A stretch of 64,000 nucleotides of DNA from contig JAJEFD010000013.1 of NCBI GenBank assembly GCA_022820645.1, forward strand, positions 71,308 through 135,307. Direction: 5' to 3'. The first letter of the stretch is position 1. Every line of letters starts with the position of its first letter. A program made the position numbers and the translations under genes. Shown here one piece after another: positions 7,225-57,313 of the stretch. A model generated the notes under the pieces. The model saw nothing but the letters and a program-made list of their open reading frames with translations, did no database searches and was not told where the DNA came from. This DNA comes from Dehalococcoidia bacterium (lineage in GTDB: Bacteria > Chloroflexota > Dehalococcoidia > Lucifugimonadales > Australimonadaceae).

Positions 7225-7432
7225 GTCATTCCAGCACCGGCTGGAATCCAGGGGGCGCGGGCAGCGCACGTGGGCGAGGCGGAGCGTGGGGGAGGGAATG
7301 TTGTCATGCTGAGCGGAGCGCAGCGGAGTCGAAGCATCCTCGGAGTTGTCTGGTGTAGGGGCGTCCCTTGTGGGCGCCCTTCCCCCACCTCTCCCAAAGG
7401 GCGAGGTGGACGCGCTTGCGCGGCGGGTGAGA
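7225..7432 (+). repeat. composite REP cluster (types A, E, D, C in series)
   Basis: Type A variant gtcattccagcaccggctggaatccag at 7225-7251. Type E tgtcatgctgagcggagcgcagcggagtcgaagcatcctcgg at 7302-7343. Type D gtaggggcgtcccttgtgggcgccc at 7355-7379. Type C cccacctctcccaaagggcgaggtggacgcgcttgcgcggcgggtgagag at 7383-7432. Confidence 0.9.
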
Positions 7433-7523
7433 GCGGACCTACTCCGTAGACAACTTGACCGCGGATGATTACGATTCGCACTGTGAACTACTAGGCACGA
7501 TTGGATTCGCAAGGAGGGCAGCC

Positions 7524-11330: not shown

Positions 11331-11500
11331 CGTCGTTCCTGCCTTCGCAGGAACCTCGGTTGGCGTGTAGGGGCGTCCCTTGTGGGCGCCCTGTCTGACC
11401 CACCTCTCCCCGGGGGAGAGGTCGACGCGCTTGCGCGGCGGATGAGGGTTGGCAGCGGGGAGGGGGCTGTCATTCCGAGCGAAGCGCCGCGGGGTCCCCC
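11331..11500 (+). repeat. composite REP cluster (A variant, D, C, E-like)
   Basis: It includes gtcgttcctgccttcgcaggaacctcg, gtaggggcgtcccttgtgggcgccc (11367-11391), cccacctctccccgggggagaggtcgacgcgcttgcgcggcggatgagggt, and ctgtcattccgagcgaagcgccgcgggg. Confidence 0.85.
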
Positions 11501-22029: not shown

Positions 22030-22327
22030 GTCGCGCCTCCCCCGTTCGTGCTCGCATGCGGCTGCCACCGCGCGCGCAGTCTACTACGCCCCGCCTCAGG
22101 TGCAACGCCCATATCCTGTGCATCCTGCACATCCCTGTCGATTGTCGGATGTGTGACACGCGCCACTTGCGCGAATGTCCGACCGTGCCGCACGATGGTA
22201 GAGCGCGATAACAGAGCGCGCACTTGAACCCTTGCGGACAAGCCGCAGGAAGACCGCTGCCCCCTCAGCGAAGAGCACGAGGGGGCTTTCTGTGTTAACC
22301 GGGTATCCGGGTGGAGAAGGTGGACCC

Positions 22328-23905
22328 GTGGCAGAAGACCTCACAAGATACAGGAACGACCCCGTCGGCTTCGTGACGGACGTGCTCGGCGAGGCAGGGG
22401 CGCCGTACTCGAAGCAGGTCGAGATGCTCGAGGCGGTCGTGGAGCATCGGCGCGTCTCGGTCGTCGGAGCGAACGGCTCCGGCAAGGACTGGACCGCCGC
22501 ACGCGCCGTGCTCTGGTGGCTGGAGACACGTCCGGAGGCCACCGTCCTCGTCACGGGCCCGACCCAGCGGCAGGTCGAGGAGATCGTCTGGCAGCAGATG
22601 CGCCTGGCGCACGCAGCCGGGGAAGACCGCCTCAGCGGGAAGATGTTCACGTCGAAGTACCGCATCGACGACAAGCGTTTCGCCATCGGCTTCTCCACCA
22701 ACAAGGCCTGCAACATCCAGGGCTTCCACTCCCCGGAACTGCTCGTCATCGTCACGGAGGCGCACGCCATGCCCCAGGACCAGATGGACGCCATCAAGCG
22801 CCTGCACCCCAACCGGTTGCTGCTCGTGGGCAACGCCATGTCGCTCGACGGCGAGTTCTACGAGTCCCACCACTCGAAGCGCGCCCGCTATCACCGCATC
22901 CGCATCTCCGCCTACGACACGCCCAACTTCACCGGCGAGAACGGCGGCGTCCCCGGGATGATCACGCCCGACGACGTCGAGGAGCTCGCCCTCGACTGGT
23001 CGGAGGACCACCCCGCGTACGTCTCCGCCGTCCTCGCGCAGTTCCCGGACGCCCAGGAGGACTCGCTCGTCGTACGCGACGCCGTGGAAGCCGCCATGGA
23101 GCGCGGCGAGGCTCTGCTCGATTGTCATTCCGAGCGGAGCGCAGCAGAGCCGAGGAATCTCTCGGGTGCAGACCCCGCTGTGGACGAACGTTCTCCGAGA
23201 GATGTTTCGACTTCGCTCAACATGACAGCCCTGTCCGTCGACGACCCCGACGCGGGCATGCCCGTCTACGTGGGCGTCGACGTGGCGCGGTTCGGCTTCG
23301 ACAAGTCCGCCATCTGCGTGCGGCGCGGGCAGCGCGTGCTGAGCCTGCGCTCCTTCCAGGGGATGGACACGATGCGGCTGGTCCACGAGATCCTGCAGAC
23401 GGTGGAGCAGACGGGCGCAGAGGCCATCTTCGTGGATGAGGGCGGTATCGGCGGGGGCGTCGTGGACAGGCTGAAGGAGCTCGGGGCGCCCGTCTACGGC
23501 AAGCACTTCGGCGGGAAAGCGCCGCACCGCACGCGCTTCTACAACATGCGCTCCGAGTTCTTCTGGGAGTTGCGGCTGCTGCTCAACGACGGCCTCGTCG
23601 CGCTGCCGCGCGACGAGGAGCTCGCCGGACAGCTGGTCTCGCTGCGCTACGACGTATCGAGTTCCGGTCAGGTGCGGCTGCAGGGGAAGAAGGAGATGCG
23701 GAAGCGGGGCCTGCCGTCGCCCGACAAGGCGGACGCGCTCGCGCTTGCTTTCCTCGTGCCGCCGTCGCTCGGCATCTGGACGGGCACCGAGCCCCTCCTC
23801 GACGACGACCGCCGTTCGCCGCACTTCGGCCTCGGCTACCGGCCTCCGCCCGATGAGGACTCGCAGCCCAGCCCCAGCCTCGGGATATGGTTCGGACGAC
23901 CTTGA
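22328..23905 (+). CDS. phage terminase large subunit-like protein (orphan), carrying an in-frame repeat insertion
   Basis: ATPase motifs: VSVVGANGSGKDW (Walker A) and PELLVIVTEAH (Walker B). RNase H-fold nuclease motifs: VGVDVARFGFDKSAI, FVDEGGIGGGVVDRL, SPDKADALALAF. GTG 22328 after ggtggagaagg is my start guess; the track ATG is 22232. Confidence 0.8.
   Translation: MAEDLTRYRNDPVGFVTDVLGEAGAPYSKQVEMLEAVVEHRRVSVVGANGSGKDWTAARAVLWWLETRPEATVLVTGPTQRQVEEIVWQQMRLAHAAGEDRLSGKMFTSKYRIDDKRFAIGFSTNKACNIQGFHSPELLVIVTEAHAMPQDQMDAIKRLHPNRLLLVGNAMSLDGEFYESHHSKRARYHRIRISAYDTPNFTGENGGVPGMITPDDVEELALDWSEDHPAYVSAVLAQFPDAQEDSLVVRDAVEAAMERGEALLDCHSERSAAEPRNLSGADPAVDERSPRDVSTSLNMTALSVDDPDAGMPVYVGVDVARFGFDKSAICVRRGQRVLSLRSFQGMDTMRLVHEILQTVEQTGAEAIFVDEGGIGGGVVDRLKELGAPVYGKHFGGKAPHRTRFYNMRSEFFWELRLLLNDGLVALPRDEELAGQLVSLRYDVSSSGQVRLQGKKEMRKRGLPSPDKADALALAFLVPPSLGIWTGTEPLLDDDRRSPHFGLGYRPPPDEDSQPSPSLGIWFGRP
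23123..23227 (+). mobile_element. 105-nt MITE-like inverted-repeat element inserted in frame inside the terminase-like CDS
   Basis: Left arm tgtcattccgagcggagcgcagcagagccgaggaatctctcgg, ~30-nt core, right arm ccgagagatgtttcgacttcgctcaacatgaca. The architecture matches the intergenic copy at 24005-24119. It translates as CHSERSAAEPRNLSGADPAVDERSPRDVSTSLNMT. Confidence 0.8.
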
Positions 23906-23936
23906 TCGGAGGAGGCCGCGTCATGCCGCGATCCTC

Positions 23937-23963
23937 GTCATTCCCGCGAAGGCGGGAATCCAG
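23937..23963 (+). repeat. type-A REP hairpin copy
   Basis: gtcattcccgcgaaggcgggaatccag, followed by a second hairpin gtgaccgtgaggtcac. Confidence 0.9.
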
Positions 23964-24004
23964 AGTGACCGTGAGGTCACACGGTGGGGAGGTGCGAGGA
24001 GGGG

Positions 24005-24119
24005 TGTCATGTTGAGCGGAGCCGGAGGCGCAGTCGAGATATCTCTCGGGATGCGTTGGCTGCCATGCGGCGTTATCCGAGAGATTCCTCGACTCCGCTG
24101 CGCTGCGCTCGGAATGACA
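24005..24119 (+). mobile_element. 115-nt MITE-like inverted-repeat element (intergenic full-length copy)
   Basis: tgtcatgttgagcggagccggaggcgcagtcgagatatctctcgg ... ccgagagattcctcgactccgctgcgctgcgctcggaatgaca. The arms are imperfect inverted repeats of each other. Confidence 0.8.
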
Positions 24120-24140
24120 GTGACGGGTGAGGGGCTTCCC

Positions 24141-36256: not shown

Positions 36257-36667
36257 GGGGCCCTCCTTTCGATGGCAACGGGACGACGCGGGCAGCGTAG
36301 CGTGCGGAGAAGGGCGGTTCAAGTGCGAGCACTCTCACCGCGCGCTGAAGCGCGTTCCTCTCCCAGGGGGCGAGGTGGGGGAAAAGGGCGCCCACGAGGG
36401 ATGCCCCTACACCAGACTTCACCCGAGAGGTTTCTCGGCTACGCTCGAAATGACAACACCCGCGCCACCACCGGTTCACCCTCTCCCGCCGCGCAGGCGC
36501 ACGGCGACCTCTCCCCTCAAGGGAGAGGGGGACCCTCACCCACACGCTGAAGCGTGTTGCCCTCTCCCAGGGGGCGAGGGGGAGGCGAGATTCCTGCCTA
36601 CGCAGGAATGACAGGGGGCTCGCCGTGTGGCGAGCCCCTTTGTCACTTACGCTGCGTGGGACGTGTC

Positions 36668-42067: not shown

Positions 42068-42471
42068 GCGACCTCACTCCCGAACAGATGGCCGAGTTCC
42101 TGGAGCGGCCGCTCGTCGCGGTGTTCGTAACGCTGCGGGCGAACGGGACGCCGCACGCCATCCCCGTGTGGTACGAGTACCGGGACGGCGAGTTCATCGT
42201 GTTCACGAGCAGCAAGTTCCAGCGGGTGAAGAACCTCGAACGGAACAACCGCGCAGCGATCACTATCTCGACGCACGACGAGCCGTACAGGTACGTATCG
42301 GCAGAGGGGCCGGTCGTCATCACGAAAGAGGGCGTGGAGGAGACGGGGTACTCGATAGCAAGGCGCTACATGGGGGAGAACGCCCAACAGTTCATGGACG
42401 ACGTGTACGATGAGACCGCAGTGTTGCTGCGGCTCACCCCGGAGCGCATCCTGACCTGGATCGAGGACTAG
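42064..42471 (+). CDS. pyridoxamine 5'-phosphate oxidase family / F420-binding split-barrel protein
   Basis: MSDLTPEQMAEFLERPLVAVFVTLRANGTPHAIPVWYEYRDGEFIVFTS. ATGA overlap with the upstream SDR gene. Confidence 0.8.
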   Translation: MSDLTPEQMAEFLERPLVAVFVTLRANGTPHAIPVWYEYRDGEFIVFTSSKFQRVKNLERNNRAAITISTHDEPYRYVSAEGPVVITKEGVEETGYSIARRYMGENAQQFMDDVYDETAVLLRLTPERILTWIED

Positions 42472-42523
42472 GGGGTAACCCTCACCCCCAGCCCCTCTCC
42501 CAGGGGAGAGGGGAGCAGGCACC

Positions 42524-51052: not shown

Positions 51053-51284
51053 GTCCATCAGCAGGCCCTCACCCCTCCCGGTTCACCCTCACCCTAGCCC
51101 TCTCCCCTCAAGGGAGAGGGGACCCGAGAGATTCCTCGGCTGCGCTCGGAATGACAGCCACGCAGCACCCCATCGAGGGCCCTCACCCCAACCCCCTCCC
51201 ACAGGAGGAGGCGGGCATGCGGAGCCGGAGGCGTTTCGGATATACTGAGCGTCGGGCCGAGGCCGTAAGGCCGTTCCACCGCGT

Positions 51285-54449: not shown

Positions 54450-54703
54450 GAGTGTGCTCCCCGGTAGCTATGCCTCTACGTGATATTACGCATGAACGGG
54501 ACGGCGGGTTCCGTGGGCCGCCGCGCCTCCCAGCCGGTTCACCCTCTCCCCAACCCTCTCCCCTCAAGGGAGAGGGGGCCAAGCGCCCCACGCCCGGCCC
54601 ACGCCCGCGAGCGGCGCAGCGAGCCGCTCCACCACCGTTCCACCCTCACCCGCCGCGCAAGCGCGTCGACCTCTCCCAGGGGGGCGAGGGCGCGCTAAAG
54701 CGC

Positions 54704-56524: not shown

Positions 56525-57241
56525 TCACGGGTAGAGGCCGCCCTGCGGGAGGAGGAGCAGGTCCTCGACGACCTGCCTGTCCGAGAGCGTCATCGCGCTC
56601 ACGATGGCGTCGGCGACCTCGTCCACGGTGAGCATCTCCTCGCGCGGGAGCGGCGTGCTCATGCCCTCCCATATCGGCGTGTCCACGGGGCCGATGCAGG
56701 CGTTGACGACGCGCACGCCCTGCCGCCGCACCTCGGTCGTGAGGGCGCGCGCGAAGCCGGTGACCGCGTGCTTGGTCGCGCCGTAGCCGGTCATGCCCGC
56801 GAAGCCGCGATGCGCGACGACGGAGGAGACGATTACGATGCAGCCGGAGCCGCGCTCCAGCATGCCGGGCAGCAGCGCGCGCGTGGGGAAGAGGGTGCCG
56901 TTGACGTTCGTCTCCCACAACTCGCGCCAAGTCTCGTCGTCGAGCTCCGTGAGCGGCGCGGCCTTGAAGGCGCCTGCCGAGTTCACGAGGATGTCGACCC
57001 GTCCCAGCTCCCGCTCAGCGCGGGCGGCCATCGCCTGCACCGCTGCACTGTCGCGAACGTCGCAGGGGAGCGCGAGCCACGAGTCGTCGGGCCAGCCGGA
57101 GGCGGCCTCGCGCAGCCGCTCCTCGCTGCGTCCTACCAGTGCGACCCGCGCTCCCGCGTCGATCAGGCGACGGGCGACGGTCTTGCCGATGCCGCTCGAC
57201 GCGCCGGTGACGACGGCGGTCTTTCCCGCGAGGTCCATCAT
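56525..57241 (-). CDS. SDR family oxidoreductase
   Basis: MMDLAGKTAVVTGASSGIGKTVARRLIDAGARVALVGR, NSAG, YGATKHAV. Confidence 0.88.
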   Translation of the reverse strand: MMDLAGKTAVVTGASSGIGKTVARRLIDAGARVALVGRSEERLREAASGWPDDSWLALPCDVRDSAAVQAMAARAERELGRVDILVNSAGAFKAAPLTELDDETWRELWETNVNGTLFPTRALLPGMLERGSGCIVIVSSVVAHRGFAGMTGYGATKHAVTGFARALTTEVRRQGVRVVNACIGPVDTPIWEGMSTPLPREEMLTVDEVADAIVSAMTLSDRQVVEDLLLLPQGGLYP

Positions 57242-57313
57242 AGGGCGGGCTCCCAGTTCACCCTCACCGGCTGCCATGCGGCAGCTTCCTCTCCCCTTGT
57301 AGGGAGAGGGGAT

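Follow-up and report, generated by a model that had tools for sequence, protein, structure and literature searches.

The subject of this work is a 64,000-nt stretch of the genome of a Dehalococcoidia bacterium (phylum Chloroflexota; contig JAJEFD010000013.1 of the GenBank assembly GCA_022820645.1, positions 71,308 to 135,307), hereinafter referred to as the window. Within it, a gene whose product resembles the large subunits of phage terminases (TerL) carries, between its ATPase and nuclease domains, a 105-nt element composed of two arms in inverted orientation, which lies in frame with the gene and amounts to 35 codons. Comparative analysis of related loci (designated here by L numbers) showed that the region joining the two domains, i.e., the hinge of the TerL-like family of SAR202 bacteria, collects palindromic repeats of several families, and that the insertion found in the window is neither unique nor recent. 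The gene and the parts of the element are as follows (window coordinates, strand, description; pLDDT, predicted local distance difference test score; AF2, AlphaFold2).

22328-23905, +, TerL-like gene, 525 amino acids (aa), GTG start, alone among housekeeping genes
22328-23110, +, ATPase domain with the terminal helix (residues 250-265) preceding the hinge; pLDDT 75-97 (AF2 model 2)
23111-23122, +, ALLD codons, 5' hinge flank of the element
23123-23165, +, left arm TGTCATTCCGAGCGGAGCGCAGCAGAGCCGAGGAATCTCTCGG, TGTC-tagged hairpin with the ATTCC/GGAAT stem; nhmmer E-value 4e-13
23166-23194, +, 29-nt spacer GTGCAGACCCCGCTGTGGACGAACGTTCT, the 3' part of which (GAACGTTC...) recurs in the ~480-nt GIY-YIG units described below, at their right sub-terminus
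23195-23227, -, right arm CCGAGAGATGTTTCGACTTCGCTCAACATGACA, short-loop hairpin with the ATGTT/AACAT stem, in the orientation opposite to that of the left arm; nhmmer E-value 3.5e-6
23228-23239, +, ALSV codons, 3' hinge flank of the element
23261-23800, +, RNase-H-like nuclease domain (Foldseek); pLDDT 82-96

The TerL-Like Gene

The reading frame is open from position 22232 to 23905, and the real gene probably corresponds to positions 22328-23905, since its homologues begin with MAEDLTRY and the GTG codon at 22328 is preceded by GGAGAAGG, which resembles a ribosome-binding site. The encoded protein matched the terminase large subunit family phrog_2 of the PHROG database (E-value 4.6e-36), its Pfam matches being weak. 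A Foldseek search with the predicted structure retrieved the full-length large terminase gp2 of Sf6 as the best match (E-value 1.5e-16), together with the E217 and G20c TerLs, and for the nuclease domain it indicated the TerL nucleases 8dkr, 5c12, and 5m1p of E217, Sf6, and G20c (TM ~0.7). A Walker-A-like motif, GANGSGKD, is invariant across the homologues. That the element separates the ATPase domain from the nuclease domain of a terminase-like gene, as stated in the original prediction, was supported.

Although the protein comprises both the ATPase and the RNase-H-like nuclease of a phage TerL, none of the genes of a phage morphogenesis module that were looked for in the window, i.e., those encoding the small terminase subunit (TerS), portal, and capsid, was found. 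The neighbors of the gene are an amidohydrolase gene, a threonine-aldolase-like gene, lspA, and rluD, and the order Amidohydro_2/terL-like/Beta_elim_lyase/LspA/RluD is common to the loci L001, L002, L003, and L015 of SAR202/Dehalococcoidia metagenome-assembled genomes. The gene of the L003 locus is the nearest to that of the window (95% identity), and synteny at this position goes back to a divergence of at least 0.3-0.5 synonymous substitutions per site (dS). The eventuality, considered in the original prediction, that the host gene is disrupted was not confirmed, since the reading frame is intact and the ratio of nonsynonymous to synonymous substitutions (dN/dS) across orthologues and paralogues equals 0.08-0.36 in both domains. 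The GC content at the third (GC3, 0.94) and second (GC2, 0.42) codon positions is like that of the neighboring real genes, and more than 100 intact homologues share approximately 170 invariant residues.

The TerL-like family of sponge-type SAR202 is a multi-copy one, at least five diverged paralogues being present on individual chromosomes, as exemplified by OY764542.1 (loci L005, L016, L021, L025, and L050). The paralogues among the loci L003-L082 are 57-80% identical to the window protein, and each of them is situated in its own conserved housekeeping neighborhood, where no other phage structural genes were found. True phage TerL relatives are 27-34% identical to it, have 436-446 aa, and lack the hinge expansion.

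The 105-nt Element

The sequence of the element was as initially stated: positions 23123-23227 contain a two-arm inverted repeat whose total length is 105 nt and whose translation in the host frame, CHSERSAAEPRNLSGADPAVDERSPRDVSTSLNMT, is stop-free; a predicted junction-spanning peptide of the read-through product would be NLSGADPAVDER. Its termini are TGTCAT...ATGACA, with the TGTC tag outermost on each arm (variants with CGTC are seen in L003 and L287), and the arms belong to a TGTC-tagged family of the form TGTCATTCC. Since three of the six reading frames of the element (+1, +3, and -1) are free of stop codons, the open host frame is unsurprising, and the informative feature is the length being a multiple of three. 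The RNA fold predicted for the 105 nt has an energy of -40.9 kcal/mol (z = -2.4), and with DNA parameters the score is weaker (z = -1.25).

A 115-nt intergenic element of the same two-arm family is located at 24005-24119, in the opposite orientation, the 43-nt arms of the two elements showing 93% complementarity; the common architecture of the two, noted in the original prediction, was upheld. The 13-mer GTCATTCCGAGCG, allowing for up to two mismatches, gave 12 matches in the window against 3.75 expected, and none of 100 shuffled sequences reached 12. The search with an arm profile revealed 12 arms in the window, among them all the single arms noticed previously (7302, 17919, 42524, 54704, and 57314) as well as those at 11468, 36423, and 51124.

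Insertion into the Inter-Domain Hinge

The homologues were compared in an alignment of 40 sequences and subsequently in approximately 80 SAR202 loci. Two conserved blocks were found to flank a hypervariable hinge, which extends between ...AVE.AM.RGE and PVY.GVDVARFG. In the SAR202 paralogues L014, L013, L031/32, and L051 this hinge is short (11-26 aa), many other hinges contain one CHSERS...LNMT unit, and some contain two to five of them, so that the copy number ranges from 0 to 5. Even the syntenic orthologues differ in this respect, as CHSERS...LNMT is present in the window, L003, and L015, PEGEGSQTHLSPGERTARGSAAGEG in L001, and VVPAE...AGMT in L002. The 35 residues are missing from phage TerLs and from the 11-26-aa SAR202 hinges, which supports an insertion, but the insertion is not a clean one of 35 residues, because the flanking ALLD and ALSV are also missing from L001 and from the empty hinges.

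The first AlphaFold run, based on 40 sequences, was poor for the ATPase domain, and the low pLDDT of the insert was therefore uninformative; the modeling was repeated with 77 sequences. In model 2 of the second run (mean pLDDT 78.8), residues 269-302 constitute the only internal segment below 50 (pLDDT 38-43), while the insert corresponds to residues 266-300 and both flanking domains reach 80-97. The element is thus predicted to form a disordered loop in the ATPase-nuclease hinge, a point that the original prediction had proposed to check by structure prediction.

The Hinge as a Repeat Hotspot

Arm copies were surveyed in 1.1 Mb of sequence (82 loci and the window), which contained 125 arm clusters and 64 two-arm elements. 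Only 22 clusters passed a strict test for coding context, and all 22 are situated in a terL-like hinge and none in other genes. The two-arm elements of the hinges measure 105, 117, 120, 129, or 159 nt, the length being divisible by three in 24 of the 28. Those found outside are mostly 106, 116, 112, or 103 nt long, and only 8 of 36 are multiples of three (Fisher p = 7e-7, with the restriction that the copies are related by descent and hence are not independent). The bias toward whole codons inside genes, for which the original prediction had suggested looking, was thus found. Four hinge copies of 118 nt, all from one clade, change the frame in the middle of the element. The site, orientation, and frame are identical in 27 of 28 hinge copies, and different paralogues use the +1 (CHSERS...) and +3 (SFRAE..., ...AQHD) readings. 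No recurrent target-site duplication was detected in the flanks of the 64 copies, and comparisons of filled and empty sites revealed composite blocks or tandem duplication in its place. In the loci L008 and L011, further copies arise through tandem duplication of a ~180-nt unit, which comprises a two-arm element and an apparent GTAG-tagged repetitive extragenic palindromic (REP) sequence.

It should be stressed that the hinges accommodate more than one repeat family. Canonical NTS-type hairpins lie in frame within them in both orientations (RHSSERWNPE and RDSRLRGNDD; 10 cases), and further in-frame repeats include VVPAEAGTSQP (probably an NTS-like variant), GAHEGRPYT (apparently a GTAG-type REP), and other modules (PLPEGEGSQTHLSPGERSARGSAAGEG). 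In the sponge-type clade, nearly all members carry a repeat of some kind in the hinge. A protein-database query with the insert peptide padded to 40 aa gave no candidate, and it provides no survey of other host proteins.

The Arm Family and the GIY-YIG Units

The stems were analyzed in 322 arm matches (192 unique), originating from the SAR202 loci and from unrelated metagenome contigs. Seven haplotypes of a 5-bp stem were distinguished, namely ATTCC/GGAAT, ATGTT/AACAT, ATGCT/AGCAT, ATTTC/GAAAT, ATCCC/GGGAT, ATGTC/GACAT, and ATGCC/GGCAT. Complementarity is perfect in each of the seven, and in the 192 unique arms 97-99% of the stem positions are paired; judging by this covariation, the intra-arm hairpin is real. 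The long hairpin which both arms could form with each other is conserved, but its consensus contains no compensatory pairs, the covariation residing in the intra-arm stem. The two-arm elements are heterodimers, which in the listed copies combine an ATTCC-type and an ATGTT-type arm and end with TGTCAT...ATGACA.

The exact arm occurs in at least 120 JGI metagenome contigs of 43-69% GC, none of them in coding context, although the GC3-based coding test fails on the contigs of lower GC content. The hinge-type spacer pattern gave no matches in the JGI metagenome search.

In seven related loci, we identified units of ~480 nt (476-486 nt), in which two arms enclose a single open reading frame (ORF) encoding a 97-aa GIY-YIG protein. 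Their coordinates include the following.

L034:5243-5722, arm-GIY-YIG-arm unit
L237:1128-1607, arm-GIY-YIG-arm unit
L065:5430-5907, arm-GIY-YIG-arm unit
L033:4822-5307, arm-GIY-YIG-arm unit
L064:5150-5635, arm-GIY-YIG-arm unit
L069:4625-5100, arm-GIY-YIG-arm unit (GIY-YIG copy frameshifted)

The 97-aa protein matched the Pfam GIY-YIG family PF01541 (E-value 8e-15) and, weakly, the UPF0213 protein 1zg2, with no NCBIfam match. It has over 7,700 relatives in many phyla, the best listed of which show approximately 65-75% identity or more. Arms of the (T/C)GTCAT...ATGAC(A/G) form bracket a GIY-YIG gene also in loci of Nitrospirae, Planctomycetota, a cyanobacterium, Gemmatimonadota, and Verrucomicrobia (L283-L288). 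In at least seven loci, GIY-YIG units are situated within about 1 kb upstream of terL-like genes, and some of the ~480-nt units lie inside arrays of two-arm elements immediately upstream of such genes. A second, armless GIY-YIG subtype adjoins other terL-like paralogues (L019, L022, L054, L056, and L059).

The ~480-nt units and the 105-mer share the left arm and the right sub-terminus (GAACGTTCCCCGAGAGATGTTTCG..CGCTCAACATGACA), and the 105-mer is therefore most simply regarded as an internal-deletion derivative which lost the gene, i.e., an element of the MITE (miniature inverted-repeat transposable element) type. The term MITE-like, used in the original prediction, appears apt, as longer units with the same termini carry a gene.

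Turnover and Conservation of the Insert

The hinge copy is common to the window, L003, L015, and L004 (dS ~0.14-0.22), and copies of the same subfamily are present in most of the paralogue clades. However, a different repeat occupies this position in L001 (dS ~0.15), which the host tree places as the sister of L003, and L002 has yet another one, while L016 lacks the copy present in its orthologues L006, L008, and L011. Because the turnover of the hinge is so fast, the insert is a poor dating marker, and the proposal that it might serve as a natural one is weakened: L001 and L003 carry different repeats, and the trees of the elements and of their hosts partly disagree. In shallow clades the element tree does follow the host tree. 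The spacer is conserved among the hinge copies only, with a codon-phase pattern of 0.84/0.74/0.59, and the dN/dS of the insert is 0.13-0.50.

In our reading, the founding insertions were one or few and old; they were inherited and duplicated together with the gene family, and deletion, tandem duplication, and replacement were frequent. The arms would be kept from decay by a constraint intrinsic to the element or by re-templating from other copies.

Origin and Persistence of the Element

The reading which we consider probable is that of a passenger: the permissive hinge tolerates the element, which descends from a hairpin element associated with GIY-YIG genes, and selection filters the copies by length and frame. 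The ancestor would be an arm-GIY-YIG-arm unit, from which an internal deletion would remove the gene and leave a 105-nt head-to-head heterodimer. The latter would enter the flexible ATPase-nuclease hinge of a chromosomal TerL-like gene under purifying selection and would be read through as 35 codons, adding a disordered loop, and selection would purge the copies whose length is not a multiple of three or which contain a stop codon. The insert peptide itself would require no function, and the element would persist because the hinge tolerates almost any length. We infer that the insert is translated, that it arrived by this route, and that it rides along as a passenger without being a functional component.

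Several observations weigh against such a scenario. The window contains no GIY-YIG gene, and target-site duplications were looked for and not found. All the arm clusters in coding context are confined to one hinge, which indicates that the availability of any permissive loop is not the whole story. Moreover, arm clusters are enriched in the first 500 nt downstream of the gene (0.27 per locus against a background of ~0.03), and 39 canonical SRMs (the motif to which the NTS-type hairpins conform) are situated within 500 nt upstream of terL-like genes. The element is better conserved than its host (mean identity of 87.5% against 81.5% for the host domains and 70.7% for the host third positions), the elements of L005, L008, L019, and L046 group together even though their hosts represent three clades, and the arms are equally conserved in hinge and intergenic copies, whereas a passive passenger would be expected to decay.

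Alternatively, the copies could be maintained by a nuclease: an Ssn-like GIY-YIG enzyme would nick the single-stranded DNA (ssDNA) of the arms, and repair from another copy, in the hinge of a paralogue or elsewhere in the genome, would repeatedly re-template them. Homing-like gene conversion, and not simple descent, would thus keep the element and spread it among the paralogous genes. This is compatible with the element being a passenger, and we regard it as rather unlikely, although it is the main alternative. It would explain the high conservation of the element in relation to the host (L008 and L019 are 95% identical in the element and 75% in the host), the equal conservation of arms inside and outside genes, the common clustering of elements from three host clades, the constancy of site, orientation, and frame in 27 of 28 hinge copies, and the proximity of GIY-YIG units to terL-like genes; Ssn enzymes are, furthermore, known to cut beside such hairpins in ssDNA (PMC11893778). 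On the other hand, the immediate flanks are wholly different between paralogues, and hence there is no co-conversion tract, the shallow element clades track the host tree, and the spacer represents a hinge-specific lineage, as descent predicts. The arms of the 105-mer also fail the published SRM regular expression. Exaptation, in which the insert would serve as a long, adjustable hinge between motor and nuclease, or as a hairpin in mRNA or DNA which pauses transcription or translation between the domains or marks the gene for regulation, seems improbable. The codon-phase pattern of the spacer, the dN/dS of the insert, the predicted RNA fold, and the presence of some repeat in nearly all hinges of the sponge-type clade are consistent with it. 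Nevertheless, close relatives have hinges without repeats or with unrelated ones and the copy number varies from 0 to 5, the consensus of the long hairpin lacks compensatory pairs, the z-score of the fold is modest and weaker still with DNA parameters, and arm conservation is the same in intergenic copies, which makes it intrinsic to the element and not host-specific.

Two further possibilities are disfavored. A repeat in the dead ORF of a decaying prophage remnant, staying open by chance in GC-rich DNA, is very improbable: it is true that the gene is isolated between housekeeping genes, that the window contains neither a TerS nor a portal or capsid gene, that long ORFs frequently arise spuriously at a GC content of 67.5%, and that the paralogue L064 is split by an IS110-family element, yet both domains are under purifying selection, the GC3 and GC2 values are like those of real genes, more than 100 homologues are intact with about 170 residues invariant, and synteny has been retained. 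That the 35 residues are an ancestral linker, from which the genomic repeats derive, has next to no plausibility in our opinion. The same peptide in the same frame does recur in many paralogues. However, it is missing from phage TerLs and basal SAR202 homologues, other hinge copies are read in other frames (SFRAE..., ...AQHD), and the arm is present in metagenome contigs with GC contents of 43-69% (at least 120 of them) and brackets GIY-YIG genes in several phyla.

Relation to Known Repeat Systems

In-frame palindromic repeats in coding genes were described in 2000 by Ogata et al. as the Rickettsia palindromic elements (RPEs) (PMC10969869), in-frame fusions with host ORFs have been documented for several MITEs (PMC10969869), and intragenic REPs of the GTAG and CGTC types are also documented (PMC10969869, PMC3733652). 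An in-frame palindromic repeat within a coding sequence is therefore an instance of the already known RPE phenomenon, and in itself it is not unusual, contrary to what was originally suggested. As in RPEs, a palindrome with a (C/T)GTC tag adds tens of residues in frame at a fold-compatible site of a functional gene of a symbiont. The element is situated within a coding region, has a number of nucleotides divisible by three, and is stop-free, the ORF is intact, uninterrupted homologues lack it, a loop is predicted, and purifying selection is evident. It differs in that the host is a SAR202 sponge-type bacterium, that one hinge of one multi-copy family is affected instead of many unrelated genes, and that several repeat families accumulate at one site with a copy number of 0-5.

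The CGTC-tagged (often TGTC) REP-like repeats have stems that start with A-T and occur mostly as head-to-head dimers, among which heterodimers are common (Di Nocera et al., PMC3733652). This group comprises the dRS3 repeats of Neisseria and RPE-4/-6 of Rickettsia, includes intragenic in-frame copies, and seemingly has no dedicated transposase (PMC3733652). The 105-nt element shares with it the TGTC tag, the AT.../...AT stems in all seven haplotypes, and the head-to-head heterodimers. The stem of 8-9 bp and the loop of 4-5 nt expected for this superfamily are not seen here, the covarying stem having 5 bp and the loop 11-22 nt; the NTS-type hairpins of the window do fit these dimensions.

According to Chenal et al. 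(2025; PMC11893778), SsnA binds the dRS3-containing hairpin NTS, CGTCATTCCCGCGMAVGCGGGAATCYRG, in the form of ssDNA and cleaves it a few nt upstream. This enzyme is a single-domain GIY-YIG protein of 94 aa, the gene of which is typically flanked by NTS-type hairpins, and the GTC 5' of the palindrome together with the C right after it is critical for cleavage and binding by the SsnA of Nm (PMC11893778). Transposition by Ssn-type proteins is undemonstrated, and the insertion sequence (IS)-like layout of the gene was left as an open hypothesis (PMC11893778). The arm of the 105-mer resembles these targets in having the GTC tag, palindrome, and following C (TGTC-ATTCC...GGAAT-C), and the likeness extends to the arm-gene-arm arrangement around a single-domain GIY-YIG protein of ~95 aa and to the clustering of repeats around particular genes. 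However, both the long-loop and the short-loop arm fail the SRM regular expression, the loop being 11-22 nt long, and neither two-arm deletion derivatives nor in-frame copies are described in PMC11893778. As far as can be judged from sequence, the element would work like the SRM/CGTC repeats and is probably related to them.

REPINs (REP doublets) and their REP-associated tyrosine transposases (RAYTs) (Bertels and Rainey 2011, PMC3116915) are similar in consisting of an inverted hairpin pair with a short spacer, ~100 nt long and non-autonomous, and of hairpins flanking a small nuclease-type gene. The differences are the GTAG tag and the Y1 (IS200/IS605-type) transposase of the REPIN/RAYT system as compared with TGTC and a GIY-YIG nuclease here (whole genomes were not scanned for RAYTs), and the fact that REPINs are essentially extragenic (PMC3116915), while the present element is intragenic. 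With MITEs (PMC10969869), the element shares the small size, terminal inverted repeats, multiple copies, and ends common to a longer protein-coding unit; unlike them, it showed no target-site duplication, and the only ORF of the longer unit is a GIY-YIG domain and not a known transposase.

It is also worth mentioning that at L064:7120-8345 (OZ242348.1) the terL-like paralogue is split by an IS110-family element, which interrupts a hinge arm exactly at TGTCAT^TCCGAG; the 331-aa ORF of this element matched DEDD_Tnp_IS110 (E-value 5e-23) and Transposase_20. Thus, the arms serve as IS110 targets, like REPs and dRS3 elsewhere (ISPpu9, PMC12288879; dRS3 as the target of a phage recombinase, cited in PMC11893778). 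This event is secondary, took place in a paralogue, and is not part of the element of the window.

Other Repeats of the Window and Features of the Family

Beside the gene, between its stop codon and that of the aldolase gene, a composite block of repeats was distinguished, and NTS-type hairpins are scattered over the window. Using the SRM regular expression of PMC11893778, 10 hairpins of 28 nt were found (most of them CGTCATTCCCGCGAAGGCGGGAATCCAG), against 1.1 in shuffled sequences; the pattern was defined in Neisseria, while the window represents Chloroflexota.

23913-24138, composite repeat block of 226 nt (NTS hairpin, two-arm element, and other modules)
23936-23963, +, canonical Ssn-related hairpin with the NTS consensus CGTCATTCCCGCGAAGGCGGGAATCCAG, SRM match, just 3' of the terL-like gene
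24005-24119, -, two-arm element of 115 nt described above
1751, 9171, 9844, 15937, 20367, 20893, and 23936, +, NTS/SRM hairpins
42612, 43229, and 55707, -, NTS/SRM hairpins

The closest orthologous loci (L001, L003, and L015) hold just 8 nt at the position of the block, which therefore represents a recent gain, and the whole of it was possibly gained in one step. A composite transposon, in which the inverted elements at 23123 and 24005 would mobilize the nuclease domain, was considered and rejected, as the orthologues retain the hinge copy without the downstream block.

The sign of the GC skew flips near 24 kb (switch region of ~22-26 kb of the window). The 21 hairpin repeats of the window (11 TGTC arms and 10 of the NTS type) change strand at ~24 kb, all those situated to the left of this point being on the + strand and all those to its right on the - strand, and most of them lie just 3' of co-oriented genes. 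The orientation of genes (6+/5- to the left and 8+/19- to the right of the switch) does not fit a simple origin. The arms are usually parts of mosaics of short repeats, as at ~7345-7440, 36330-36420, 42470-42523, 51060-51123, 54620-54703, and 57230-57313, in which the partners of the arms include GTAGGGGCGYCC...GGGCGCCC (apparently GTAG-tagged and REP-like) and the CCCCTCTCCC...GGGAGAGG...GGTGAGGGT modules; these modules recur in frame in the terL-like hinges of other loci. At the gathering threshold, Rfam indicated two tRNAs and no other family in the whole window, and the sole match for 24006-24118 was a meaningless sub-threshold miRNA.

A TerS-like partner with a helix-turn-helix motif was found only in another paralogue clade. 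Clustering of the ORFs encoded in the flanks was largely confounded by peptides that repeats encode and by spurious ORFs of GC-rich DNA, and the GIY-YIG and TerS-like neighbors were the only usable ones. In one paralogue clade, a 133-aa protein (MSHNVPPERTIALSPRQAAALPYVAAEPTLTRAAEAAQVTRRTLARWMNEPAF..., L059:4554-4952) has homologues which, in at least 20 loci, are encoded upstream of the terL-like gene at a distance of 1-2.5 kb; it has no Pfam match, is absent from the window, and may be a small-terminase-like DNA-binding partner. The locus L039 (NZ_CBDBNY010000003.1), labeled as Candidatus Palauibacter, a sponge symbiont of Gemmatimonadota, contains a terL-like gene which is 79% identical to that of the window and has a 117-nt hinge element, which could be a result of a binning error or lateral transfer.

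Significance

What is special in the case described here is the single hinge hotspot, the in-frame accumulation of several repeat families, and the relation between the dimers and the nuclease-carrying units. It constitutes a second in-frame palindromic system, in an unrelated phylum and again in a symbiont, and a natural experiment as well, as dozens of paralogous and orthologous hinges with 0-5 copies directly expose the filter for length and frame. Short dimers with the exact ends of nuclease-carrying units are the pattern expected if these units are, or were, mobile, and the locus bears on the question of what mobilizes the CGTC/SRM repeats. It also draws attention to an unexplained multi-copy family of chromosomal TerL-like genes in SAR202, ringed by hairpins.

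A more far-reaching proposal, which we put forward as a doubtful but consequential one, is that the arm-GIY-YIG-arm units are genuine (past) mobile elements and the dimers their deletion derivatives, that an Ssn-type nuclease mobilizes or maintains the CGTC/TGTC REPs, the Rickettsia RPEs included, and that the hinge of the SAR202 TerL-like genes with its flanks is a preferred landing or gene-conversion site, in which copies are kept intact by nuclease-triggered repair instead of being simply tolerated. If this were true, the Ssn-type nuclease would be the long-missing enzyme of the CGTC/TGTC-tagged REPs.

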